Below, piece after piece: positions 247 to 17,377 of a stretch of DNA of 19,904 nt (its first letter is position 1; the number at the start of each line of letters is the position of its first letter). The position numbers and the translations under genes are program-made. The DNA comes from Candidatus Heimdallarchaeota archaeon (GTDB lineage Archaea > Asgardarchaeota > Wukongarchaeia > Wukongarchaeales > JBHIFL01): assembly GCA_046761065.1 (NCBI GenBank), contig JBHIFL010000072.1, positions 1 through 19,904 of the forward strand, in the 5' to 3' direction. The notes below the pieces were generated by a model that saw only the letters and a list, made by a program, of their open reading frames with translations, was not told the origin of the DNA and did no database searches.

Positions 247-1821
247 ATGTCCGGGAGAATGAGAGGAACCAGATTGAACAAGAATCAAACAGCCAGAACA
301 AATTCAATTGCTGTTTTTTGGGATATGGAGAACTGTGCTCCTCCACGAGGAATGAAAGGCCCGGATATTGTAGGGAATTTAAGATCGACGCTTCAAGACT
401 TTGGGGTCATTCGTCAGATTAATGCATACGCTGAACTCCGGCTCATCCCGAAAGACCTTCGTATAGAGCTCCAACGATCTGGCGTGCACCTAATTGATGT
501 TCCGTCACAGGAAAAAGATGCCGCCGACAAAATGATCATCTCAGACCTGATTATGTTTGCAGTCGACAATCCATCCCCCCAGACCCTTGCTTTGATTTCA
601 GGTGACCGGGATTATGCGTATCCTCTAGCCAAACTACGCTTACGGGGATATGAGGTCATCTTATTGATCCCACCAGTCGGGGCACACCCGACCTTACAAG
701 CTCAAGCTGATCGTATCATCGACTGGTATGATCTCGCTAAAGGGGAGCAACTCGAAGGGCCCTCAATTCCAGAAACCTTGGCAACGATCCAATTCGAACC
801 TCTTGTTGCTACCTTGCAGCATTTGAGAGATTTGGGGGAGTTAAATCCCCTCTTTTCACGCGTCGGAGAACATTTAGCCCTCAAATATCCTGCCCGATGG
901 AAAAAAGTAGGTGTCACCCGCCTTAAGGATTATATGGAAGAGGCTGCAAAAGCGGGTTTGGTTTCCTGGGGCGGAAACCCACCCCGCTACTGGGTCACCT
1001 TGGTACTTCCCGAGGCCGATGCGGAAAAACCTCAAGATATGACCATTACCGACGACTCTCGCTTTGGCCCGCTCCTTGTGATCCTCAAGAAAGCACAAAT
1101 GATGGGAATTGATGAACCCGAGATGGCCTGGATTGGCTTCCAACTTCGATCAATGATGCCTGCATGGCGGGAACAGCTGGGATGCAGTCGCCTAATGGAC
1201 TATATCGTAGAGGCGGAGGACGCCGAGTTAATTGAAGTCCGACATGAAGGTCTCCAACATTACGTGCGTTTGAAGTCGCCTGATGTGGTCGAAAGCGCGG
1301 GAACTATTGAACAAACAGATCTTGATCTCCTCGAACACGCTTTGGAGACCCTTCGACAGGATAAACTCCTCCCAACCGAGAAGATAGTGCTGGCAAGAAT
1401 GAGAGAACTCTCAGATGGGTGGACTCTGCAACGATCTCCATTCAATAATACCCGCCAGTTATTTCGGGCAGCAGCTAACCTGCGGGGGATCATTATTAAA
1501 GGAGAGCCCCCAAATCGCCTAGTCTTTCCTGCGCAAGAGGAGTATGAAGGGTTTGACCCAAATGACTGTTCGGTTGATCCCTTCTCCGAAGAACAATGGG
1601 CTGCAGTACAGCAATTCCTCAGAGCTAATCCCCATATAAAGGAGAAAGGACGATATTTCTTTGCCAAATACCTTCAGAAAGAAGGACCCACTCAGTTACG
1701 TGAGTTAAGCTTGGGGGAACTCATGTTACTGGTTCAATTAACTGCTAATAGAGGTTGGATTTTTTTCAAAGGCCTGTTCTTGCATGTGTCCACTGATCTG
1801 TTAGATAAAAACGAACCTTGA
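247..1821 (+). CDS. NYN-domain (PIN-like, limkain-b1/MARF1-type) ribonuclease with two tandem OST-HTH/LOTUS-like repeats and a C-terminal OHA-like region
   Basis: 524-aa ORF. NYN motifs IAVFWDMENC, KDAADKMI and LISGDRDY keep their acidic residues. Two similar ~70-aa repeats start FEPLV (~aa183) and FGPLL (~aa273). The C-terminal region contains LLPTE...DPFSEEQW...GRYFFAKYL...LSLGELMLLV. Confidence 0.85.
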   Translation: MSGRMRGTRLNKNQTARTNSIAVFWDMENCAPPRGMKGPDIVGNLRSTLQDFGVIRQINAYAELRLIPKDLRIELQRSGVHLIDVPSQEKDAADKMIISDLIMFAVDNPSPQTLALISGDRDYAYPLAKLRLRGYEVILLIPPVGAHPTLQAQADRIIDWYDLAKGEQLEGPSIPETLATIQFEPLVATLQHLRDLGELNPLFSRVGEHLALKYPARWKKVGVTRLKDYMEEAAKAGLVSWGGNPPRYWVTLVLPEADAEKPQDMTITDDSRFGPLLVILKKAQMMGIDEPEMAWIGFQLRSMMPAWREQLGCSRLMDYIVEAEDAELIEVRHEGLQHYVRLKSPDVVESAGTIEQTDLDLLEHALETLRQDKLLPTEKIVLARMRELSDGWTLQRSPFNNTRQLFRAAANLRGIIIKGEPPNRLVFPAQEEYEGFDPNDCSVDPFSEEQWAAVQQFLRANPHIKEKGRYFFAKYLQKEGPTQLRELSLGELMLLVQLTANRGWIFFKGLFLHVSTDLLDKNEP

Positions 1822-2258
1822 AGCCTGTGACGAAGGTTTCATGTCTTGTGGGAACCTACTTGGAAGTGACCGATGTCGACTTGGCTGTGTGCCAACAGGC
1901 AGAAGGGGTCCTATCCCCGCCCCCCCGCCCCGCAGTGGGAAATGGCTGGTTTTTGTGGATTGCAACGAGGTCGATACAGTCCTGGGCTACGATTAAACAG
2001 ACGACAAAAGTAGGCCAGATAGGTGGTAGTGCGAAGGTCACGACTGCTAAACCGAACCCGTACGCGACGGATCCGAAGACCAAAGTGATCTGTGTGTACA
2101 CCTACGATTGGACGGATGAAGCCGATGTCTGTCGCATCCGGAGCGAGCTGCGCGCCCTCGGGATCACGCAGAAGATCCCCTACAAGGCGGATGCTGATAC
2201 CTTACGGGACAAGTATCGGGTCACTGGCCATCGGCGGATCAGCAAGTATTATGAATGA
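1818..2258 (+). pseudogene. DUF1917 / Bles03 (C11orf68)-like protein; 5' part frameshifted (pseudogene or sequencing error)
   Basis: The C-terminal half has SAKVTTAKPNP, VICVYTYDWTD and LGITQKIPYKAD. The family motif SGKWLVFV is present only in another frame (1934-1981). Removing single extra bases near 1881, ~1918 and 1982 restores a continuous family-like sequence. Confidence 0.75.
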
Positions 2259-3574: not shown

Positions 3575-4306
3575 TTATTTGGGCTGGAGGGACCGTTTCA
3601 GCTTTTTGGCATGGGTCAAAAGGTCGTGGATGGGCATTTCTTGGTATCCATTCGCCGCGAATTGGGAAAACTCGCGGAGTAACCGAGCTCGTTCGGGTTC
3701 CGGGAGCTTGGAGATATAGGCATCAAAACGAGCCCAATTGGCTTGAATATGGTGATAGTATTTGTGACAAATCGCTTTCGCATGTTGGATATCGTGATGA
3801 GTGGGGGCGCCGACTGTGAACCCTTGACACACAAACCCCATGCCCTCCACCGTTCGCAAGTGGAGGCCAAACGTCATGCGGTTGCGGAGCTTGGAGGCCT
3901 GGTGGTGGTATGAAAACGGATAAAAGACGCAGAGGTGGGGTCGGATGAGATAGATGAGGCACCGATTCGTGTGCGGATTCAAAAAGATGCAGTGCCCCAT
4001 TTTTTGGCGAAGCGCGAACCCGCACAGATTGTCGACGGAGCGAGGCACTTGACAGATGAACTTGGCGAAGGGGACGTTTTTCACCCGTGGCAGGTGATGG
4101 CGGGCGAACGTCCGCCATTCGCGGGCTAACCGGGCGAATTCGTGGGGGGGCAACGGGACTTGCTGGTCATAACGACAGCATCCCCCACATTGGACACACT
4201 CCCAGCGAAAGTGTTTCGGGAGGAAAATGTCGTAAGAAGCGGATTCAATCACGAGAACCGTTTCCAGTTCGTCGGGGGAGAGGTTCAATTGATCCAAGGT
4301 AACCAA
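3575..4306 (-). CDS. YkgJ-family cysteine cluster (CxxCxxCC) protein
   Basis: FRWECVQCGGCC, CIFL...CLIYLIRPHLCVFYPF and a downstream CQGF. GGAGG RBS at 4316-4320 on the minus strand. Confidence 0.85.
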   Translation of the reverse strand: MVTLDQLNLSPDELETVLVIESASYDIFLPKHFRWECVQCGGCCRYDQQVPLPPHEFARLAREWRTFARHHLPRVKNVPFAKFICQVPRSVDNLCGFALRQKMGHCIFLNPHTNRCLIYLIRPHLCVFYPFSYHHQASKLRNRMTFGLHLRTVEGMGFVCQGFTVGAPTHHDIQHAKAICHKYYHHIQANWARFDAYISKLPEPERARLLREFSQFAANGYQEMPIHDLLTHAKKLKRSLQPK

Positions 4307-4553
4307 CCATAGCCGCCTCCATTAGACGTGGAATAGGCTGCAGGGCGACCGCCATTTGCAGCCCGGCACTCAGTTCTATAATTCCAATACCATTTTGATT
4401 TAAAGGCTTCAACGGGAACTTCATTTCGCCAAGCATTTTGTAAGGTAATTTGGATCTCGCAGTTTTCAATTGAGTACTGCCTAGGAATTAACGCAAGGAA
4501 TTGTCACAGTTCCCACGCGCCCAAGGGATTTGCGCCCGTTACCCTCCTATTGA

Positions 4554-4964
4554 TATGAACTGCTCAAAGGTACCTCTCCCACTCACAAGGACACGGACCA
4601 CGACTTCTTCCCAGACCCCCAAGATTCCTTTCCCACTCGCTCCAACTTTTGGTTCGTGGCAGCGATCGTGTTGTTGTTCCTAGGCGTGAGGGCTAAATGG
4701 ATCCATCAATATTACATCTGAAAACGACAAGAAACTCGTAAACGCCGTGAACGGGTGGAATTGGCATCCTTTGCTCAAGGGTTTTGCCCGCGGTGTGGTA
4801 CGGTGCTTCATGCTATCCAATGCCCCCACTGCGGGGTCACTGGATACGTTGGGACGTGTCCGCAATGTCGCACGCTTATTCCGGATGTGGTCAAACAATG
4901 CCCTCACTGTGGCGCCAAAGGGTATTATGGGGAAATTTACCGGGAAAACTCGACTGAAAATTAA
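4554..4964 (+). pseudogene. Remnant of a membrane protein: DTDxD Ca-binding-like repeat + TM helix + four-CxxC zinc ribbon. Only the 69-aa zinc-ribbon part (4755-4964) is open.
   Basis: The frame of ORF 4755-4964 reads YELLKGTSPTHKDTDHDFFPDPQDSFPTRSNFWFVAAIVLLFLGVRAKWIHQYYI*KRQETRKRRERVELASFAQGFCPRC...CPHC...CPQC...CPHC. TGA occurs at 4719-4721 and 4551-4553. Confidence 0.6.
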
Positions 4965-5022
4965 AATCGGATTCGAAAACCCATTAGATCTCCAAATGGA
5001 GGAAGAAAATGATTCGAAGTAA

Positions 5023-5328
5023 TTATGCTTGATGAACTTCGTTCCTTCCTCTGTTCGGAACATGTGTTTTCCGGGAGCAGGTCCGCCAGCACGGGTGCCG
5101 GGTCCCCCCCCACTGGCGTGCCAGCTCGCCAAACACTCCCACCGCCCTGCGTCGCAAATCCTTGTCTCCGGCTTTCATATCCTCTCGGAAGATGGTCAGC
5201 AAGGGCGCAGGATCCTCCAACCAGCCCCCAAGGGTGACAAGAGAATCCAGTGCCTGTCCCCCAAGTCTCTCGACTACCTCGTCTTGTTCTTCTGGTGGGA
5301 GACGGAACCGCACCAGTGGATCTTCCAT
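5023..5328 (-). pseudogene. HEAT-repeat-like protein fragment, frameshifted at a G8 run
   Basis: MEDPLV...WLEDPAPLLTIF...DKDLRRRAVGVFGELARQWG. A one-base shift at the C8 run (5104-5111) gives DPAPVLADLLPE, a second copy of the W-x-x-DPAP-L motif. Confidence 0.45.
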
Positions 5329-5889
5329 CGCGCCCACAAGGGTCACGGAGCGAATTGCGCGCAAAAGAAAAAGCCCAAAAGAGTCAATCGCAGAAACTCG
5401 TCGAGAATGGGGTTCTAGGCGTTCACACGTGAATAGATCCCGCAATGTGGGATATTTGGTAATCCTCCAGCCCTTGTATTATAGAGCGATCGTCCTCAAT
5501 ACATTTATCACAAGGTTTCCTTCTCGAAATTGTGGCATGATAGAAGGCGTATTGAACTTGATAGGGTAAACCGTCGAGCAATCATTTCTCCCCCAAAAAT
5601 TGACACGAACACCTTCGTACAAAACTTGAAGGATTAAAAGTCAAATAAACAAGGCAATAACTGTCGGTTGGGATATAAAGACCCCCTTGAGCACGCAGAA
5701 TCAAGGGTTCTCTAAAACACTCTTTATTCACCGTTTTTAGCCATCATTAATTTTCGTCGGACATTTTGAATAGTTCGAGAAATTCGAAATATTTAAATGC
5801 TCCTAAGGGTTCGAACTTATCAAGTGATCCAGATAGTTTCAGTGACCTCTCCGGGTGTCATCTGGGGGCATACCGAAAGGAGGCGTACG

Positions 5890-7245
5890 ATGTCCAAGCG
5901 GTTAAGGAAAGTGGCCATGGAAGCCGTACACGAAGCAGAAACGGAAGAATTGTCAGTAACCACCCCGTATGCCTTCTATGGGTTTGCAAAAGACCCATTT
6001 AACCCGATGCTGCCGTTAGATGTGGGCGAAGAGGAGCAAGAGGAGTTCGAAAACCATTTTGGGTACGATTTTTTCAGGGGGTTCATAAAAAAGATCGGTC
6101 AAGCGTATAATGCCAAATTAACCGAATATCACAGGTCCTATCGCGTGAATAAACGTTATACGACAAGTCATATTCCGAACCTGATTTTATGTGGGCCGCC
6201 AAATTCAGGGAGGACAACGATCTGTAGGATCCTTGTGGCGGTCCTGAACACTGCTGAAATTCTGGGGCCAGGGGCGGCGCTTTTCACGAGTACGAACGAA
6301 TGGGCCACGATGGGGGCGTCCATTGCGGAAGGGATGCAGTGCTGGCTGGATCCGGCGTATAGAAAAGAAGATGGGCGACCCTCGCTAGTTGGGCTGAAAG
6401 TGTTATTTATCGATCAGGCAGACCCCATTCCTGACTTTCTCGCAATGATTCATGCGCAAATTCAAGATTTAGCGCGGGGACCGGTGATATTGATTCCTGT
6501 GCTAACGCCCATTGGGTATGATTTTCTGGCGGAATACTGTGAAAAGGATGAGGACACCGATCAGTTATTTCGGTTAAGCTCGGAATCGACCGAACGAGCA
6601 CCGCTGACAATCTGGGTAAGACGATGGGATGTCAAGAACCTCACCAAGATGTTACGAGAGCGATTACAGGTGACTGGAGGGAAACTAAGTCCGTTCTCGG
6701 AAAAATTGCTGGAAGAAATCAGTAAACACTCCCTTGGCTTGCCGGGACAAGCGATTAAGTTAGCCGAGCACCTGATGAGGCGTGCAGAATTGTATGGGTT
6801 GGAAAAATGTGATGAAGCACATTTGGAGATCATCATGAATAGTCTCGGGATAACGACGGCGGAGCAAATTTTAAAGGGGGCCTTAGAAGAGAGCCAAGTG
6901 GTCTTGACAAGTGGGTTTGAACTTCCAAGGAAGGAGAACGACGGAACGATCCCACTTGGGGAAACCCGGAAAAAAATCCTCGAGGTGATTCTCCGCCAAA
7001 TAACGATTTTTGGAGATGATGAAGTCCGAAGGGAGATGTTATTAGATCCAAAAGGCCATGAAGCCACGCAACGGACCATAGATGTGAAAAGCTCGACACT
7101 AAGCTATCATTTAATCAATTTGGTGAAGGAGGGGGTGTTGTCTGAATCACGATATCGAAAATCTGTGGCGTATCGTATTCGAAAACCGATTGAGGCGGCC
7201 TTGCAGATAATCCTTTCAAGCAGCATGCGACGGGTAGTGATGTAG
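5890..7245 (+). CDS. AAA+ family P-loop protein (ExeA/Cdc6-like architecture) with C-terminal ArsR-like winged helix; catalytic motifs degenerate
   Basis: The ATG at 5890 follows an AGGAGG RBS (the ORF track starts at 5797). N-terminal YAFYGFAKDPF, Walker A GPPNSGRT, Walker B VLFIDQAD, lid region SLGLPG, wHTH KSSTLSYHLINLVKEGVL. Confidence 0.75.
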   Translation: MSKRLRKVAMEAVHEAETEELSVTTPYAFYGFAKDPFNPMLPLDVGEEEQEEFENHFGYDFFRGFIKKIGQAYNAKLTEYHRSYRVNKRYTTSHIPNLILCGPPNSGRTTICRILVAVLNTAEILGPGAALFTSTNEWATMGASIAEGMQCWLDPAYRKEDGRPSLVGLKVLFIDQADPIPDFLAMIHAQIQDLARGPVILIPVLTPIGYDFLAEYCEKDEDTDQLFRLSSESTERAPLTIWVRRWDVKNLTKMLRERLQVTGGKLSPFSEKLLEEISKHSLGLPGQAIKLAEHLMRRAELYGLEKCDEAHLEIIMNSLGITTAEQILKGALEESQVVLTSGFELPRKENDGTIPLGETRKKILEVILRQITIFGDDEVRREMLLDPKGHEATQRTIDVKSSTLSYHLINLVKEGVLSESRYRKSVAYRIRKPIEAALQIILSSSMRRVVM

Positions 7246-7246
7246 G

Positions 7247-8149
7247 ATGGCTGCCTCTGTGGAACTGACCTTAGGTGGAGTCTTTGGGTTCCGCGGGCAT
7301 TCGGCCGAGGTATACCTTACTATGGAGGAGGCCATCAGGCGATTGCGCAGCAAAACGAACAAACCGCAGAGTAGGAACAACCAATTCATTCCCGGGATCG
7401 ATTATGTCTCGGAAGTGGAACGGTCGGCTCGGTTCCTGTTGGTGCGCTATTTGGAAGGGTATAAATCCGTCCAGAAGACGATAGTGGAAGAAGAAGACCA
7501 GCATTTTGTTGCAAAGCGGATCTGGGTATCTGTTCCGATCCATAAGCACCTGATTGATGGGGTGCTATTTGCGAAGGGAGCCATCCAGGACCGATGGTTC
7601 TTGGTCCAAGGCGAAGAGGTGGGGGAGGCCTTTGGGCGGTTAAATCGGTACTTGCGGGCAGTGGGGGGCGAGGTGAGCCTTTCCAGCTATGCGAGCCCCC
7701 AACAGGAAGCCCTGGCCCAAGACATTCTGGTCACCCTGTATTTCCAGGATCTCTACGGCGGGCGAATCCGCGGGATCAAAATCGCGGGGAAGCGGTATCC
7801 GGTGCTCGGAACGCGGGTGCGGTACTCAGGGGACTGGGACTTGAGGCGTAGCGAGTACGCCGATGAGATCAACGAGCGGCTGAGGGCGGGTGAGAAGGTG
7901 GAAAGCATAACAGTGGTGCCTTCGCGAGCCAGTGTCCCGGCGTCAGTGGGGCGAGAGGTGCCCACATTCACGATTCGAAGCGATCTACGCATTTCCTCGC
8001 GTAGCAAGATCCGGGATAAAACGGTCTGGGCCGCGATCGCGATTGCCAAGTTGTTGGAGGAGCATAATCGCAACCTCATTCAGGAGGTCTTCGAAGAGGA
8101 ACGGAGGCTGCGGTTAAGATCGGTGGTGTCCCTTGAGAAGTTCCTATAA
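7247..8149 (+). CDS. Hypothetical 300-aa alpha/beta protein; possible RdgC-like segment and PIP-box-like tail
   Basis: Long ORF starting 1 nt after the AAA+ stop, in the middle of the operon, with no TM segment. It ends in VVSLEKFL. Confidence 0.75.
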   Translation: MAASVELTLGGVFGFRGHSAEVYLTMEEAIRRLRSKTNKPQSRNNQFIPGIDYVSEVERSARFLLVRYLEGYKSVQKTIVEEEDQHFVAKRIWVSVPIHKHLIDGVLFAKGAIQDRWFLVQGEEVGEAFGRLNRYLRAVGGEVSLSSYASPQQEALAQDILVTLYFQDLYGGRIRGIKIAGKRYPVLGTRVRYSGDWDLRRSEYADEINERLRAGEKVESITVVPSRASVPASVGREVPTFTIRSDLRISSRSKIRDKTVWAAIAIAKLLEEHNRNLIQEVFEEERRLRLRSVVSLEKFL

Positions 8150-8165
8150 CGTGAGGGGTAATTGA

Positions 8166-9515
8166 ATGACAAAGGTGGTGCTCGAAGATTCCAATAGGGG
8201 GGAGTTACAGAGGGCTCCCTCCCTAGGGTTCGCTGCTCGGGGGGCTTGCGATGCGACTGTTAAGGGCGCCAACTCTTGGGGGAACATGGGCGAAGTCAAC
8301 CCCACCCCGGCACTCGTGCTTGCACTCAAGGACAAAATAGGGGGCACGGGGGCAGTTGAGTTGGGGGCGCAAGTGGAGCAGCTTACACAATCAATTCTCA
8401 GGTGGGGGTCGATTTCCCGGCCGTTTCCAATACAAACGATTGGGAGAACCCTAAGGCGGCTAGATTTCAAGCAGTTGCGAGAAGTTGAGCGAAATGGCAC
8501 CGTGTGGGATCTGTTAGGCGAGTTAGACCACGCGCAAGTTGAACCCTTGGAGACCACAATTTCGATCGAGATGTCTAAAACAAGGCGTCAGGTTTATCCG
8601 GCGCTAGCAAAGAAGAACCTTGTGGGGTTCGATGGCGCGTCGGTGGCACTCCGCACCAGCAGTGTCTCGATTGTATATGCCCGCGCCAGCTCTTACGGAT
8701 ACTCGCAACGAACCAATAATGAGGAACGGTTGAGCTTCAACAGCGGGGTCAACCGAATCTGGTGTGACATAGCACCGATCATTCCGTCTGTTCCGAACGC
8801 CTTAGTTACGGACGAGGGGCTGAGACAACTGGTGATGGAAGACTTTGAGAAGACAGTGAGCGGTCAGGATCAAATCCTAATGGCTGAAATTGGAGCGTTA
8901 GCCCGGGTAGAAGCGATGGCAGCAATGCTGTGTGTGGGAGAGTATGGGGAGCTTATAGACCTCATCTTAGTTGATGGGCCGATGTATGTGGCGCGAGATG
9001 GTTTTGAACCAAGCCTGATACGGGCTAATTACCTGAAGCAGGTGGGGATTCCACACATCAGCGTAGTGAAGAATTTAATTGCCTCGCCTGTCATGAAAGC
9101 CGCGGGCCAGAAACAGAATTGGACCGATTTTGCGTTTTTTGCGACGTCCTTACAACCCGGCGAGCGCAGCTGTGCCTTTCTAAGGCATGATGAAGGGAAA
9201 TATGTCATCCCCCATCTCGAGCTCAAGCGGGTCTTCTTTTACTACAAAACGTTACAAGGGGATCTTTTTCGCTATGAGGCACCACTGTGGGTCTGGGAGC
9301 TGGCACAAGTCCGGACAGAGCTCCTCGATTGTTGCATTGCTGATAGTCTCCTGGCGGGGGGCGGTTTTAGTTTTGTGTTGAGTCAGGCAGATCAATTTGT
9401 GCGGATTCGCAAGGATGTGCGGGGATTGTTGCGATCCCTTCAGCAGATGCGTTTGAGGGAACAGGGTGTAGCACCGAGCGAACCCTACGATCAGAAACGA
9501 TTCTGGTGGGTGTGA
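8166..9515 (+). CDS. nurA: NurA-family nuclease (RNase H-like fold) with long N-terminal extension
   Basis: LVGFDGAS, LILVDGPM, ISVVKN, LQPGERS, FFYYK...LFRYE and GFSFVLSQADQFVRI. Lies directly upstream of a HerA gene. Confidence 0.85.
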   Translation: MTKVVLEDSNRGELQRAPSLGFAARGACDATVKGANSWGNMGEVNPTPALVLALKDKIGGTGAVELGAQVEQLTQSILRWGSISRPFPIQTIGRTLRRLDFKQLREVERNGTVWDLLGELDHAQVEPLETTISIEMSKTRRQVYPALAKKNLVGFDGASVALRTSSVSIVYARASSYGYSQRTNNEERLSFNSGVNRIWCDIAPIIPSVPNALVTDEGLRQLVMEDFEKTVSGQDQILMAEIGALARVEAMAAMLCVGEYGELIDLILVDGPMYVARDGFEPSLIRANYLKQVGIPHISVVKNLIASPVMKAAGQKQNWTDFAFFATSLQPGERSCAFLRHDEGKYVIPHLELKRVFFYYKTLQGDLFRYEAPLWVWELAQVRTELLDCCIADSLLAGGGFSFVLSQADQFVRIRKDVRGLLRSLQQMRLREQGVAPSEPYDQKRFWWV

Positions 9516-9528
9516 TGGAGGTTGTCGA

Positions 9529-11322
9529 TTGCCGAAAGTGCCCCCTAAGGACGAAAGGCCAGTGAGATCGGCGCCGGTCCTCCTGGCATCCCGCGTAGGA
9601 GCCATTACCCCTATTTTCCCCCCCTGGCCCGCTGAAAAGGAGATTGGGTACGTATTGGCGGCGGGGGCGAAAGATGCGGTCCGCATCGGCGAAGATCAGT
9701 ACAGCACCGTATTGTGTTTGATCCCAATCCGGCACCGAACCGGGTTGCGTTTGGGGGACCCGGTTTGCATCTGGGATTATGTCGAGGGGGAGGTATTTGG
9801 CGGGGTCATTGCCGAAATCTCGCTGCCAAATATCACAAGGGAACATTTAGAGACCTACCTGTTTGAAGAGTTTGTCCCGACGCAAGAGTTGGTAGCAGTT
9901 GGCTCGATAGATTTTTTGGAGCAGCCAGCCATCATTGCGGTCAAGCTGTTTTGCACCTTGGAGCCAAAGACGTGGCAGAAAGGGCCAGTGGATTATACGC
10001 CACATCCGCGTGCGTCGGTGTTCCGTCCTGGCCCAAAACTTGTCCGGAAGCTGTTTGGGCTTGCAAAAAGCGGGGAAGGGATCTGTTATGGGGTGATTCT
10101 GCTTGGGAGGCAGCCCTATAAATTTGTGACGGGGAACGGCCACGGGACAGTTGATCTTGGGACGGAAAAGGAGGTTGGCGAGGAGCAGGACACGCAGTTG
10201 ACCTATTTTCCCTATATCATGCGGGAGCACTTACTGTATGAACATGAGTTCTCGGTTGGCACAACCGGGAAAGGGAAGACGGCTCGAAACAAGAATGACG
10301 TCAAACAATGGATCGATGTACTCCACGGGGCGGTAGTGATCCTCGACAAACACGGGGAATATGTCGATCTTGGGAAGACTCCGGTGGATCCTCCCAACTA
10401 CAGGGAACAAACGATCTGGGATGATTGCTCCTTTCAAGCAGCGGGGTTAAAAGACCTCAAAATCTTTAGATGGGCGTCTCGCCTCCCGGAGGAACCATCT
10501 CAGAAGGAAGAATATTTCACGGTTCGGTTTGGGGAGTTGGAAAGTTCAGATCTTTGCTATTACTTACCGGAATTAACCCCACAAGGGTACACGGTCTTAC
10601 CGAGGTTGATTGGCTGTTTCGCGCGAGAGTCCGGGCTGTTCCCAACATTGGCCAATTTTGAGCGATGGTTAAGACGGGCAGATCTACCGGAATCTGTCGC
10701 AGATCAACGCACAGTCAGTGCAGTGCTGAGGCGCCTAGCTATGACGTTGGAATCCCATATTTTTGACGGGTTAGATCTAGAAGACATCTCAATCGAAGAA
10801 TTAATCCAACCGGGGAGGGTGAGTGTGATCCCCTTGAATCACATTCTGGATGAAGACGTGGTCACCATCATCGCCTTTCATGTGTTGAATAAGCTCGCAC
10901 GCTACAAACTATCAGGGCAAGACAAGGCGAAAACGCCTGTCATGATCCTTGTGGATGAAGCTCACAATTACTTTCCCCGTTTGGTAGATCCTGAACGAAG
11001 GGCCTTTATCAAACGTCTTGTGCGGCGGGCCAAAACCATTTGTAAAGAAGGCCGTAAATTTCAGTTGCGGCTGCAATTCACGACCCAACGGCCAGAAGAA
11101 ATCGACATAGGCGTCCTTTCGATTGTCAACACGATCACGTTCTTTGGCTGTACGCCTCAGCAAGTATCTAGCCTAAAAAGAGCGATTGAGCTCCCAATCT
11201 CCCCGAACCAGCTGATCAATCTTCCGAAGCGAACCTCCGTCATCTACTCGAAAGATAATACCGATGCCCCAGTGACGGTTCTGGTGCCTTGGCCGACGCT
11301 GTGGCACCCGGTTCGAGTGTGA
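9529..11322 (+). CDS. herA: HerA-family (FtsK-HerA) DNA helicase/translocase with N-terminal HAS-barrel-like region
   Basis: Walker A VGTTGKGKT, ILDKHGEY, Walker B ILVDEAHNY, arginine finger KEGRKF and TTQRP. GGAGGT RBS at 9517-9522 precedes a TTG start. Confidence 0.9.
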   Translation: MPKVPPKDERPVRSAPVLLASRVGAITPIFPPWPAEKEIGYVLAAGAKDAVRIGEDQYSTVLCLIPIRHRTGLRLGDPVCIWDYVEGEVFGGVIAEISLPNITREHLETYLFEEFVPTQELVAVGSIDFLEQPAIIAVKLFCTLEPKTWQKGPVDYTPHPRASVFRPGPKLVRKLFGLAKSGEGICYGVILLGRQPYKFVTGNGHGTVDLGTEKEVGEEQDTQLTYFPYIMREHLLYEHEFSVGTTGKGKTARNKNDVKQWIDVLHGAVVILDKHGEYVDLGKTPVDPPNYREQTIWDDCSFQAAGLKDLKIFRWASRLPEEPSQKEEYFTVRFGELESSDLCYYLPELTPQGYTVLPRLIGCFARESGLFPTLANFERWLRRADLPESVADQRTVSAVLRRLAMTLESHIFDGLDLEDISIEELIQPGRVSVIPLNHILDEDVVTIIAFHVLNKLARYKLSGQDKAKTPVMILVDEAHNYFPRLVDPERRAFIKRLVRRAKTICKEGRKFQLRLQFTTQRPEEIDIGVLSIVNTITFFGCTPQQVSSLKRAIELPISPNQLINLPKRTSVIYSKDNTDAPVTVLVPWPTLWHPVRV

Positions 11323-13752: not shown

Positions 13753-15186
13753 ATGACCAATAAAGAACTGCCGAGTTTGGAGCCAACACTCGTCTGGAAG
13801 TACTTTAATGAGTTGAGGAAAATCCCGCGGTGCTCAAAAAACGAAGAAAAAGCGGCTGAGTTTGTAGCAAATACCGCAGAGCAGTTTGGCTATGAAACCA
13901 TTATCGATCACATGAAGAACGTCCTCATTCGGATCCCTGCATCCCCCGGTTACGAGGAGAAAGCCCCGACCTGCCTACAATGTCATCTAGACATGGTTTG
14001 CGAGAAGACATCTGATGTAGAACATGATTTTACCCGGGATCCTATTGAGGCATACATTGATGGAGAGAACGTGAAGGCCCGGGGAACAACCCTTGGAGCC
14101 GATAACGGCATCGGCGTGGCGGTCCTGCTTGCCCTCCTCGAAGAAAGAGAATTCAACCACCCGTTCTTAGAGTTCCTCTTCACTGTAGACGAGGAAACTG
14201 GGCTGACAGGCGCTTTTGGGCTTCACGAGGATTTTCTTACGGCTCAACGGCTCATCAATTTAGATAGCGAAGAAGAAGGGACGGTGTACATAGGCTGTGC
14301 CGGTGGTGGGGGCACAGAACTCTACTTACCAGTAAAGAAAGTGCCAGTAGAAAGCGTTGGTCTCCTTATTAAGGTTCACAAGCTTAGAGGAGGGCATTCC
14401 GGCGTGGATATTCATTTGGGTCGTGCTAACGCCATTAAATTACTGGCTCGCGCCCTTGACCGACTCATGAAGTCCGAAACGTTGGAATTAGCACGTTTTT
14501 TTGGCGGGAGTAAACGAAATGTGATCCCTCGCGAAGCAGAGGCGCTTGTCACTGTTAAAGACATGAGCAAGGCAAAGGAAATCCTGAAAAAGAGCGAGGA
14601 AGACTTCAAACTTGAATATGAGGGGAAGGAAGACATGTTAGAGATCGAAGTGAAAGAAACTCCGGTGAAGGAGGTGTTAATTGACGGGGAGAAGGTCATT
14701 CAACTCCTATTAGCCTTGCCACATGGTGTCATTTCCATGAACGCGCATATTGAGAACCTTGTGGACACTTCCACCAACCTTGCAGTGGTGAACACCACAG
14801 AAGAAACGGTGGAGATCTTCCAAAGCACTAGAAGCTCCATAATCCCTGCCTTGGAGGATGTGAGAAGGAGGGTAGAAGCAACTGGAAACCTTGCTGGGGC
14901 AAAAGTGGTCCAGACAGGCAGTTATCCTGCGTGGAGACCTAACCTCCAATCACCTTTGCTGAACCTAGCCCGGGAAACGTACCAAGAGATGTATGGCAAA
15001 AGTCCAGAAGTGAAGGCTATCCATGGGGGCTTAGAGACGGCCGTGATAGGCAGCAAGTACCCTGGGATGGATATGATCTCCATAGGAGCCACATTAAACT
15101 TTCCCCACACTCCTGACGAGCAGATTCACATTCCTTCTGTTACAAAATTCTATAATTATCTGCAAAGGCTATTGCAAATGCTCTGA
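13753..15186 (+). CDS. pepD: Aminoacyl-histidine dipeptidase (peptidase M20C)
   Basis: IPRCSKNE, HLDMVCEK, TTLGADNGIG, DEETGL, NLDSEE, GGHSG, IHGGLE, HTPDE. Confidence 0.93.
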   Translation: MTNKELPSLEPTLVWKYFNELRKIPRCSKNEEKAAEFVANTAEQFGYETIIDHMKNVLIRIPASPGYEEKAPTCLQCHLDMVCEKTSDVEHDFTRDPIEAYIDGENVKARGTTLGADNGIGVAVLLALLEEREFNHPFLEFLFTVDEETGLTGAFGLHEDFLTAQRLINLDSEEEGTVYIGCAGGGGTELYLPVKKVPVESVGLLIKVHKLRGGHSGVDIHLGRANAIKLLARALDRLMKSETLELARFFGGSKRNVIPREAEALVTVKDMSKAKEILKKSEEDFKLEYEGKEDMLEIEVKETPVKEVLIDGEKVIQLLLALPHGVISMNAHIENLVDTSTNLAVVNTTEETVEIFQSTRSSIIPALEDVRRRVEATGNLAGAKVVQTGSYPAWRPNLQSPLLNLARETYQEMYGKSPEVKAIHGGLETAVIGSKYPGMDMISIGATLNFPHTPDEQIHIPSVTKFYNYLQRLLQML

Positions 15187-15460: not shown

Positions 15461-17377
15461 ATGGAGAACGAAAAATTGAATCGAGTGAGTAAAATCATAG
15501 CTTATGCTCTCATTCTATCGATGTTTCTGTATCTTCCAGGTTGTATTGGCCAAGAAGCAGAAACGATTACAGAGACCCAGGTGCAAACAGCAACAGAGAC
15601 CCAGATCGAAACAGTGAAACCAACAACACCACCCACCGAGTTCCTGAGTCCATATATTGGGAGTGGAAAATTAGATGGCAAAGGGATTCCGACAAACTTC
15701 TTTACCGATATCGATGTGAGGAAGGGCTTTGCCTATTGCATGGATTGGGACACGCTCATAGACGATGTTTTCTTGGGCGAGGCTGTCCAGCCAGCAACTC
15801 CCATCATCGAGGGATTAGCATACCACAATCCAGACCAGGTAGGATATACTCTTGATCTCACAAAAGCGGAGGAGCACTTCAAGAAGGCGTGGAACGGTGA
15901 AGTCTGGGAGAAGGGATTCAGTTTTACAATTACCTACAATATCGGAAATGAATACCGACGGGTTTCAAGTGAGCTTATTAAGAGAAATGCCGAATCCCTT
16001 AATGAAAAATTCATGATCTACGTCAGAGGTGTACCTTGGCCTACATTCCTTAGTGCTCTAGTCGATGGAACTGGGCCGATGTTTGCGATTGGTTGGCTTG
16101 CCGACTATCCAGATCCCCATAACTTCGCGCATCCATTCATGCATAGCACTGGTGATTTCGCTGGTTTCACCCATTTCAAAGATCCGGAAATTGATGATCT
16201 GATTGAAAGAGGAATTAGGGAAACGGATCCAGCCAAAAGACAAGAAATTTACTATGAGCTTCAGCGGCTCTATGTCGAAAAAGTTCCAAGTATTCCCCTC
16301 TACCAATCCACAGCTCGTTACACTTTTCAAGATTGGATTCAAGGATGGTATCATCAACCCATAGATCCCGGGTTCTACTGGTATCACTTGTGGAAAACCC
16401 CAGGCGCAAAGAACCAAGACAGGGCGGTTGTGACAACGATCGGGGGGCCGCAAACGGTCGACCCTGCGTGGTCTTACGATACAGCCAGTGCGCATCTCAT
16501 AATGAACGTCTATGATCCGTTGATCAAGTTCTATGTTGACCCAGCCAAGACATGGCCAAAGGGACAAACCCCCGAAGAGCTGACACAAGCGACTGATAAG
16601 TTCGATCCTTGGCTCGCGACGGAAGTCCCAACGGTTGCGAATGGCGGGATCAGCCCCGACGGGTTGACATATACCTTCCACCTTCGAGAAGGTATTAAAT
16701 TCACGAACGGGGCAGACATGACAGCTGAAGATGTCGAATACTCTATCGAGCGAGGCATGGTGATGGATCGGGCTGGCGGACCACAGTGGATGTTCTATGA
16801 GCCATTACTAGGGGTTTTTGGTAGTCGTGATTCCGATGGCAACATCCAAGTGTCCTTCGAAGACATTGATAACGCAATAGAAGTAGTTGACACCTACACA
16901 GTTAGATTCAATCTTGCGATTCCCTATGGTCCCTTCTTGACTGTTCTAGCGCAATGTTGGGGTTCGGTCCTTGATAAGGACTGGGCCATCGCACAGGGTT
17001 GCTGGGACGGGAACCCAGAGACCTGGACGGACTATAACAATCCAGAGGTTTCACCACTGGATGACCCGAAGCATGTAATGATGGGAACAGGTCCCTTCAA
17101 ATTTGACCACTTTGATACAGAAGTTGAATGGTTGATCGTTCGAAACGAGAACTTTTGGCATCCTAACGGACCAGCTTACTTCAGTCAAGTCCTTCTGACT
17201 ATCGATCATGAGTGGGCAGCAAGAAAGCTGAAAATGTTGGCTGGGGACGTAGATTTCTGCGCTCCTGAGACTATTGCGGATGCGATAGAGCTTGGGAAGG
17301 TTGAAGGGATTACTTCCATACCAGGTTTCGTCAATCTAGTCTGCGGTGCAATGTTCTTTAACTTCGACATCCAATAG
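15461..17377 (+). CDS. dppA: Peptide/nickel ABC transporter substrate-binding protein (family 5), lipoprotein-like, apparently circularly permuted
   Basis: Signal peptide with LPGC lipobox-like site and a Thr-rich linker. Family-5 motifs include DVRKGFAY, GWLADYPDP, TVDPA..YDTAS, YTFHLREGIKF, TAEDVEYS and GTGPFK. Lies upstream of dppBCD. Confidence 0.9.
   Translation: MENEKLNRVSKIIAYALILSMFLYLPGCIGQEAETITETQVQTATETQIETVKPTTPPTEFLSPYIGSGKLDGKGIPTNFFTDIDVRKGFAYCMDWDTLIDDVFLGEAVQPATPIIEGLAYHNPDQVGYTLDLTKAEEHFKKAWNGEVWEKGFSFTITYNIGNEYRRVSSELIKRNAESLNEKFMIYVRGVPWPTFLSALVDGTGPMFAIGWLADYPDPHNFAHPFMHSTGDFAGFTHFKDPEIDDLIERGIRETDPAKRQEIYYELQRLYVEKVPSIPLYQSTARYTFQDWIQGWYHQPIDPGFYWYHLWKTPGAKNQDRAVVTTIGGPQTVDPAWSYDTASAHLIMNVYDPLIKFYVDPAKTWPKGQTPEELTQATDKFDPWLATEVPTVANGGISPDGLTYTFHLREGIKFTNGADMTAEDVEYSIERGMVMDRAGGPQWMFYEPLLGVFGSRDSDGNIQVSFEDIDNAIEVVDTYTVRFNLAIPYGPFLTVLAQCWGSVLDKDWAIAQGCWDGNPETWTDYNNPEVSPLDDPKHVMMGTGPFKFDHFDTEVEWLIVRNENFWHPNGPAYFSQVLLTIDHEWAARKLKMLAGDVDFCAPETIADAIELGKVEGITSIPGFVNLVCGAMFFNFDIQ
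15569..15616 (+). repeat. 24-bp tandem duplication encoding the Thr-rich linker (TETQVQTA/TETQIETV)
   Basis: ACAGAGACCCAG at 15569 and 15593. Confidence 0.6.

Follow-up and report, generated by a model that had tools for sequence, protein, structure and literature searches.

Endoribonucleases of the MARF1/limkain-b1 type place a series of winged helices behind a NYN nuclease domain. In mouse MARF1, residues D178, D215, D246 and D272 are essential for the Mg2+/Mn2+-dependent cleavage of single-stranded RNA (ssRNA), and the LOTUS region is needed as well (PMC6217404). Metazoan MARF1 has two RNA recognition motifs (RRMs) and eight LOTUS domains that Pfam recognizes, and it works with decapping and P-body partners, and plant endoribonucleases of the Arabidopsis DNE1 type have been described as having a role in cytoplasmic mRNA decay. 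The combination of OST-HTH/LOTUS domains with the LK-nuclease has been proposed to be of bacterial origin and to have reached eukaryotes in one ancient transfer, with archaeal examples representing rare late transfers from bacteria (Anantharaman 2010, PMC2848206). The NYN cluster of the MARF1 type, NYN.1, has been described as eukaryote-only (Matelska 2017, PMC5499597). Here we describe a gene on a 19,904-nucleotide stretch of DNA (contig JBHIFL010000072.1, referred to in its whole length as the window) from the metagenome-assembled genome (MAG) of a Candidatus Heimdallarchaeota archaeon (GCA_046761065.1). The gene combines a NYN domain with an OST-HTH-associated (OHA) domain, and we refer to it as the NYN-OHA gene. 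Based on its domain composition, NYN subtype, active-site conservation, fold, phyletic pattern, and position in phylogenetic trees, we consider it likely that the product is a multidomain endoribonuclease that stands alone and belongs to the eukaryote-type MARF1/limkain-b1 NYN family, and that its host is a Heimdall/Hod-type Asgard archaeon. This adds a new, prokaryotic member to a family known from eukaryotes.

Comparison with described NYN proteins

The encoded protein consists of a NYN domain, two homologous winged-helix repeats of about 75 amino acids (aa) each (R1 and R2), a third winged helix (W3), and the OHA domain (Table 1). Its closest known relatives are MARF1-like NYN-OHA proteins of protists and plants, with which it shares the order of NYN domain, LOTUS-like helices, DUF7602/7625-type helix and OHA. 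Compared with these, the Asgard protein is compact (~520 aa), has no low-complexity linkers, AMPK-CBM, RRM or duplicated W3-OHA unit, and lies in a prokaryotic gene context. Metazoan MARF1/limkain-b1 (structures 5yaa and 6fdl for the NYN domain, 5yad for LOTUS) agrees in NYN subtype and in the constellation of catalytic residues, and also has winged helices after the NYN domain, but the Asgard protein lacks RRMs and a Pfam OST-HTH match, possesses an OHA domain, and is only ~25% identical across the NYN domain. With neither the RRMs nor the six to eight canonical LOTUS domains expected of a metazoan MARF1 orthologue, it is a relative within the wider family and not a MARF1 orthologue.

Fungal NYN proteins, such as those of Plicaturopsis, Pleurotus, Sporisorium and Spizellomyces, resemble the Asgard protein in the NYN domain (~39% identity) and in the R-type repeat, which is 30-39% identical and often multicopy; however, those that we scanned have no W3/OHA profile match at E <= 1e-3 and are long, with disordered linkers. 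Arabidopsis DNE1 and other plant NYN+OST-HTH endoribonucleases have NYN domains that are 38-44% identical and likewise place the nuclease before the winged helices, but their canonical OST-HTH domains (Pfam E-values down to 5e-22) have no significant match to the Asgard repeats. Bacterial and archaeal proteins that combine an LK-nuclease/LabA (COG1432) domain with OST-HTH, including 2qip and the Asgard paralogues P0207-P0209, also have a NYN domain followed by one or two winged helices, and a profile alignment of NYN-OHA to one of these Asgard paralogues extends across NYN, R1 and R2 (E 5e-21). These proteins differ in belonging to another NYN clade, in lacking OHA, and in being a structurally poorer match (see below). 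The Asgard family of P0207-P0209 (L017, L023, L024 and L027) comprises proteins of 350-450 aa and is an outgroup to the eukaryote-type clade, and in one GTDB family (f33), 47 of 87 genomes were matched, mostly through paralogues of this type.

Reading frame, NYN subtype and active site

An earlier note on this DNA, made from the sequence alone, had described the open reading frame (ORF) and its motifs, and all of them are present on re-reading the sequence: VFWDMENCAPP at residues 23-33, WAAVQQFL at 451-458, GRYFFAKYL at 468-476, and LSLGEL at 487-492, together with LETLRQDKLLPTE at 366-378. Public gene calls start the gene at TTG 274, giving a protein of 515 aa. The architecture of NYN domain, repeats and OHA is confirmed, with Pfam matches far beyond chance, while an NCBIfam scan of the protein gave no match. 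The Pfam NYN profile (PF01936) matches residues 21-159 with an E-value of 7.1e-22 and 78.9 bits, compared with a cut-off of 24.2, and both NYN and OHA are above their Pfam cut-offs in 16 of 16 aligned orthologues. The mean identity per column of the 16-orthologue alignment is 52%.

The NYN domain is of the MARF1/limkain subtype rather than the LabA subtype, as had been proposed from its opening motif, and this assignment is supported by sequence, structure, and phylogeny. In a search of the family profile against the sequences of the Protein Data Bank (PDB), the mouse and human MARF1 NYN domains (5yaa/6fdl) were the sole significant match (E 6e-18), and the two other matches (E 0.15 and 0.25) are unrelated. 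The AlphaFold model of the protein has a mean pLDDT of 80, rising to ~90 across the NYN domain. In Foldseek, the modelled domain aligned to MARF1 NYN with a template modelling score (TM) of 0.92, a root-mean-square deviation (rmsd) of 1.4 A and ~25% identity, whereas the bacterial LabA-like protein VPA0982 (2qip) gave a TM of 0.70 and an rmsd of 3.4 A.

These results bear on another explanation, that the protein is an ordinary prokaryotic LabA/DUF88 (COG1432) NYN with a bacterial-type OST-HTH and that its likeness to eukaryotic proteins is superficial. Source names such as “LabA/DUF88 family” or “NYN domain-containing protein” are in line with this, and Asgard genomes do contain NYN+OST-HTH proteins (P0207-P0209). 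However, the best sequence and structure match is MARF1 and not 2qip, and the four LabA-like NYNs of the source genome reach only 24, 19, 6.5 and 2.6 bits against the family NYN profile. In our LG+G4 tree, eukaryotes and Asgard NYN-OHA are split from the LabA-like sequences, including those of the source genome, and from the Asgard NYN+OST-HTH paralogues by a branch of 0.96 (support 99/94), so that the NYN domain does not branch within LabA/DUF88. The OHA domain is also absent from all 14 control prokaryotes and, within Asgard archaea, is found in the NYN-OHA family only. We therefore regard a LabA-type protein as a very improbable explanation.

To map the active site, we used the profile alignment to MARF1 NYN, in which MARF1 D178, D215, D246, D272, N181 and S270 correspond to D26, E63, D94, D120, N29 and S118, respectively. 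D26, D94, D120, N29 and S118 are invariant in the 16 orthologues. Position 63, the equivalent of MARF1 D215, is Glu in this protein and Asp or Glu in most orthologues.

Winged helices and the OHA domain

The two repeats that had been noticed at nucleotides 793-1002 and 1063-1272 cover residues 183-252 and 273-342 of the protein, and their family profiles align with a probability of 99.1% and an E-value of 1e-18 in hhalign, with 28% identity between the two inside this protein. In AlphaFold (AF2) models, R1, R2, W3 and OHA each have the order H-H-(short helix of 3-5 residues)-H-E-E, where H is a helix and E a strand. A winged helix-turn-helix in which a short additional helix separates helices 2 and 3 is the hallmark of OST-HTH (Anantharaman 2010, PMC2848206). 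R1 matches the Pfam OST-HTH region of the Asgard paralogue P0207 (E 1.9e-5), and R2 matches that of P0208 (E 6.4e-7). Structural comparison with VIA-align gave Z-scores for R2 of 8.2 to TDRD7 LOTUS (3rco) and 8.0 to MARF1 LOTUS (5yad), and for W3 of 9.1, with an rmsd of 2.2, to Tejas LOTUS (8wxs). A Foldseek search with the model of the four C-terminal domains returned generic tandem winged-helix proteins only (TFIIIC, RPC, SelB and ESCRT-II), and a profile built from 47 R-type repeats found nothing meaningful among PDB sequences. We therefore call R1 and R2 LOTUS-like and treat them as candidate, and not proven, members of the OST-HTH family.

The earlier note had also likened the repeats to those of fungal NYN proteins, and this likeness is borne out: many NYN proteins of eukaryotes, most of them fungi, contain the R-type repeat at 30-39% identity, and R1 is 34-39% identical to the repeats of one fungal NYN protein. 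The repeat is found in other Asgard families as well, at the C-terminus of a 649-aa metallo-beta-lactamase-fold hydrolase (L030:1-1950, +) and after a superfamily 1 helicase domain (Pfam AAA_12; L025:753-2087, -). These fusions fit a module that targets enzymes acting on nucleic acids.

The resemblance of the C-terminal region to OHA, suggested in the same note, proved to be a bona fide Pfam OHA match (PF14418; E 2e-11, 44.1 bits compared with a cut-off of 26.1, with a best value among the orthologues of E 2.8e-13), preceded by a DUF7602-like winged helix. Of the domain profiles that had been suggested as a check, NYN and OHA were matched and Pfam OST-HTH/LOTUS was not. The DUF7602 match of W3 (residues 350-389) is sub-threshold at 20.3 bits (cut-off 27) and recurs in 14 of the 16 orthologues, and the W3 model has a pLDDT of ~90. 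Compared with Atlas clusters that are 100% eukaryotic, the W3+OHA unit gave a TM of 0.71-0.76; the matched clusters contain plant “Meiosis arrest female protein 1-like” proteins (NYN+DUF7625+OHA) and apicomplexan and ciliate OHA proteins. The W3+OHA family profile aligns to protist proteins at E ~1e-26, and a word-index homology search with residues 346-524 alone returned only the protein itself.

Distribution in Asgard archaea and eukaryotes

Full-length orthologues were found only in Asgard MAGs, in six of 400 sampled species belonging to three GTDB families. In the first search, the full-length relatives were 39-48% identical over 93-98% coverage, contained both NYN and OHA, and came from MAGs only, with source labels of Hodarchaeales, Heimdallarchaeota, Thorarchaeota, and “Odinarchaeota”; they were followed by plant limkain-type NYN+OST-HTH proteins, for which only the NYN domain matched. 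Scans of genomes and genome contigs added orthologues in Hermodarchaeota and further Thor genomes, and a back-translated pattern scan of genome contigs gave four loci. The source genome also contains a second, decayed copy (contig C25, L002:1441-2500, +), which retains 79% identity across residues 7-356. Its frame is broken by two stops, where R65 and W241 would be, and the W3-OHA region is missing. A 402-aa protein with 81% identity (P0003) is present in an ENA assembly.

An exhaustive search of 1.84 billion protein representatives gave 2099 matches, 136 of them at E <= 1e-30. The Asgard orthologues rank first, and every source-named match after them is eukaryotic. We looked up 30 top representatives among the 150 top matches, and all 21 that have a source name are eukaryotic or Asgard, with no bacterial source among them, so that this architecture does not appear to be widespread in bacteria. 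The named eukaryotes are Chromosphaera (Ichthyosporea), the amoebozoans Clastostelium, Phalansterium and Planoprotostelium, the stramenopile Chrysophaeum, Mesostigma, land plants, and fungi ranging from chytrids (for example Spizellomyces) to agarics. Two matches close to Chromosphaera that have no source name are also eukaryotic, judging from the split Aquarius exons, kinases, and V-ATPase genes on their contigs. The Chromosphaera perkinsii protein Nk52_evm22s307 (P0064) is 52% identical in the NYN domain and 33% identical across R2-W3-OHA (E 3e-35), and the Clastostelium protein (P0065) aligns over the full length and bears a second W3-OHA unit. Given that homologues beyond Asgard archaea are essentially confined to eukaryotes among the source-named top matches, and that OHA was found in none of the 14 control prokaryotes and within Asgard archaea exceeded the family cut-off only in the six genomes with NYN-OHA, NYN-OHA is the only prokaryotic branch we could find of an otherwise eukaryotic clade.

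The source genome is a 4.4-Mb MAG with 91% completeness and 8% contamination, and eukaryotic contamination was considered and excluded as the source of the gene. The window is dense in prokaryotic genes (an ABC peptide transporter, HerA/NurA, and a ribbon-helix-helix protein), and among the Asgard contigs that carry orthologues are ones of 122 kb, 327 kb and 1.55 Mb. Moreover, the HerA-like gene of the window has a 55%-identical counterpart, and the adjacent ORF at 5797 a 31%-identical one, side by side only in two Asgard genomes of the same order, which ties the contig to their lineage. The host had been left to be established from marker genes; both the labels of the orthologues and the best matches of window genes in same-order genomes identify it as Asgard, and its phylum also includes the labelled Asgard genomes named above.

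Several observations weigh against the interpretation as a MARF1-like endoribonuclease with LOTUS-like modules. R1 and R2 have no match to Pfam OST-HTH (PF12872), either here or in the orthologues; their hhalign comparisons with plant OST-HTH are non-significant (E 0.27 for R1 and 0.14 for R2), as is that of the 47-sequence repeat profile (E 0.049); and the structural matches to LOTUS domains (Z 8.0-9.1) are tied with those to ORC/Cdc6 and other winged helices. Three orthologues have Gly, Ala or Arg at the catalytic position 63. The family is rare, occurring in 1.5% of the sampled Asgard species, and is absent from two genomes of the same order that are 87% and 92% complete, and the decay of the second copy to a pseudogene indicates that the gene is dispensable in many lineages.

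Phylogeny and origin of the family

We inferred trees of the NYN domain under LG+G4 (99 rows, full search) and LG+C20 (54 rows). Under LG+G4, the Asgard NYN-OHA sequences form a monophyletic clade (98/92), joined by the Chromosphaera group and fungi at 98/97, and the LG+C20 tree gives the same picture, with an SH-aLRT value of 98 for the grouping of Asgard with holozoan and fungal sequences. Chromosphaera and fungi form a weak group of their own (64/47). The Asgard clade contains three subclades: one of Heimdall sequences, one comprising the source genome together with Hodarchaeales and further Heimdallarchaeota-labelled sequences, and one of Thor and Hermod sequences. Taken at face value, the maximum-likelihood (ML) trees nest the Asgard clade among eukaryotes, with a root that hangs on very long outgroup branches.

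One explanation is an ancient transfer from a eukaryote related to early opisthokonts into Asgard archaea, after which the gene would have been passed on vertically, been lost in places, and perhaps spread among Asgard lineages. The strongly supported ML placement of the Asgard clade beside Chromosphaera-type and fungal sequences speaks for such a transfer, and the distribution within Asgard archaea is very patchy, with gene turnover visible in the source genome as one intact and one decayed copy. This rarity, together with the absence of the gene from same-order genomes and the decayed copy, favours either transfer or massive loss. However, the rooting depends on outgroup branches of 0.9-3 changes per site, long-branch joins were flagged, and the approximately unbiased (AU) test gives no significant preference. 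In addition, the Asgard sequences are as divergent among themselves (39-48% identity) as they are from the nearest eukaryote, with a divergence that tracks class-level taxonomy, and the Asgard clade is sister to no one sampled eukaryote. On balance, we give a transfer of this kind somewhat less than an even chance.

The other explanation is a true eukaryotic signature protein (ESP): the Asgard ancestor of eukaryotes would already have had a NYN-LOTUS-OHA nuclease, which passed to the last eukaryotic common ancestor (LECA) and was lost in most living Asgard lineages. The Asgard clade is monophyletic, and its deep subclades correspond approximately to the source labels, which points to an old presence of the family within Asgard archaea; the clade is also nested in no single modern eukaryotic lineage. 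On the eukaryotic side, members occur in Opisthokonta, Amoebozoa, Archaeplastida, stramenopiles and alveolates, so that the family is plausibly of LECA age. Forcing the eukaryotes into one clade, with Asgard sequences outside all of them, lowers the log-likelihood by only 5.4 and 4.3 units, and the AU test does not reject this topology (p-AU 0.43 and 0.34). Against this, the root of both the LG+G4 and the LG+C20 ML tree falls among amoebozoan and plant sequences, with the Asgard clade beside holozoan and fungal ones, eukaryotes are monophyletic in none of 200 bootstrap trees, and the broad presence in Asgard archaea that might be expected of such a protein is not seen. We view this origin as tentative, with a chance slightly lower than that of a transfer. 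An ESP and a transfer were the two options raised in the earlier note; the eukaryotic affinity common to both has held up, while the trees are compatible with vertical inheritance and with an ancient eukaryote-to-Asgard transfer and do not decide between them.

Predicted function and gene neighbourhood

By analogy with the described relatives, we infer RNase activity and RNA binding by the winged-helix array, as well as the probable substrates, partners, and cellular role. The NYN domain would bind Mg2+ or Mn2+ through D26, E63, D94 and D120 and cut ssRNA, as mouse MARF1 does. The four tandem winged helices (two LOTUS-like, one DUF7602-like, and OHA) would bring the nuclease to RNA or to a partner such as an RNA helicase, a role that we model on the LOTUS array of MARF1. 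Because there is no conserved operon partner, the most likely role is that of a protein working by itself in the turnover or surveillance of RNA. When nine proteins of the window were compared with nine orthologous loci by tblastn, only the NYN-OHA gene itself was conserved, and its neighbours at the Hodarchaeales locus, among them genes for a serine hydroxymethyltransferase and an acyltransferase, are unrelated to those in the window.

Immediately downstream is a short Bles03-like ORF that is probably co-transcribed with the NYN-OHA gene here but was not found beside it at the orthologous loci examined. It matches, at E 4e-15, the C-terminal third of the Pfam family Bles03 (PF08939), whose name comes from a human protein. 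Three small genes of this type are present in the source genome (contigs C101, C72 and C140) and none in the 14 control prokaryotes. This ORF may represent another eukaryote-typed domain in this Asgard genome.

A role in anti-virus defence or as a toxin nuclease, which had been raised as a possibility, would be in keeping with the frequent use of NYN/PIN nucleases in conflict systems, and both the patchy distribution and the pseudogene copy resemble the dynamics of defence genes. A HerA/NurA cluster also lies 4 kb away. However, PADLOC assigned no family to the NYN-OHA protein or its immediate neighbours, there is no antitoxin-like partner, and the neighbours differ at every orthologous locus examined. 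The HerA cluster itself is separated from the gene by genes on the opposite strand, and is conserved in same-order genomes that do not carry the NYN gene. We therefore consider defence an unlikely function, and RNA turnover or surveillance remains our preferred interpretation.

Other features of the window

The HerA/NurA cluster could be a repair-type or defence-type variant of this system; its 482-aa P-loop protein has no Pfam match. In the solute-binding protein (SBP_bac_5), residues 381-635 match profile positions 2-208 of 368, which is the first part of the profile, and on visual inspection the protein's first third resembles the C-terminal half of the family. This gene may be fused, permuted, or misassembled. 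The ~1.5 kb at 4306-5797 contains only short overlapping ORFs with no Pfam match, and an Rfam scan found nothing anywhere in the window.

Table 1. Features of the 19,904-nucleotide window, with domains of the NYN-OHA protein listed under its gene.
Feature	Position	Strand	Details
NYN-OHA gene	247..1821	+	524 aa from ATG 247, frame uninterrupted
NYN (PIN-like) nuclease domain, MARF1/limkain type	304..741	+	residues 20-165
Repeat R1, winged helix, LOTUS-like	772..1014	+	residues 176-256, core 183-252
Repeat R2, winged helix, LOTUS-like	1048..1281	+	residues 268-345, core 273-342
Third winged helix W3, DUF7602-like	1294..1542	+	residues 350-432
OHA domain	1564..1806	+	residues 440-520; winged-helix topology in model
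Pfam OHA core	1636-1761	+	residues 464-505
Bles03-like ORF	1818..2258	+	146 aa; TTG start overlaps NYN-OHA stop codon
Four-gene co-directional cluster	5797-11322	+	482-aa P-loop protein, 300-aa protein of unknown function, NurA-like nuclease, HerA-like ATPase
Dipeptidase	13753-15186		named matches in Thermoplasmata or bacteria, ~50% identity; no guide to host taxonomy
Solute-binding protein (SBP_bac_5)	15461-17377	+	638 aa; Pfam profile matched in two stretches

Implications for the MARF1/limkain family

No paper that connects Asgard archaea to NYN, MARF1, LOTUS or OHA came up in our searches. These terms are also absent from the Eme et al. 2023 supplementary files that were searched, and we found no table of Asgard ESPs that lists the family. 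An Asgard family that falls inside the eukaryotic clade and shares its OHA domain challenges both the view that these proteins are of bacterial origin and the view that NYN.1 is eukaryote-only, and it provides an archaeal candidate for the ancestor, or at least a recipient, of a eukaryotic RNA-decay nuclease. The compact, intron-free NYN-LOTUS-OHA version of 520 aa could also ease experiments on the function of OHA and DUF7602/7625. It is tempting to consider, as a proposal whose chances we place below even, that the MARF1/limkain-type NYN-LOTUS-OHA nuclease, a component of mRNA decay and P-bodies, was inherited by eukaryotes from an Asgard ancestor and not from bacteria, contrary to what has been proposed previously (PMC2848206). 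If this is true, the family would be a previously unlisted ESP, and part of eukaryote-style RNA surveillance would predate eukaryogenesis.

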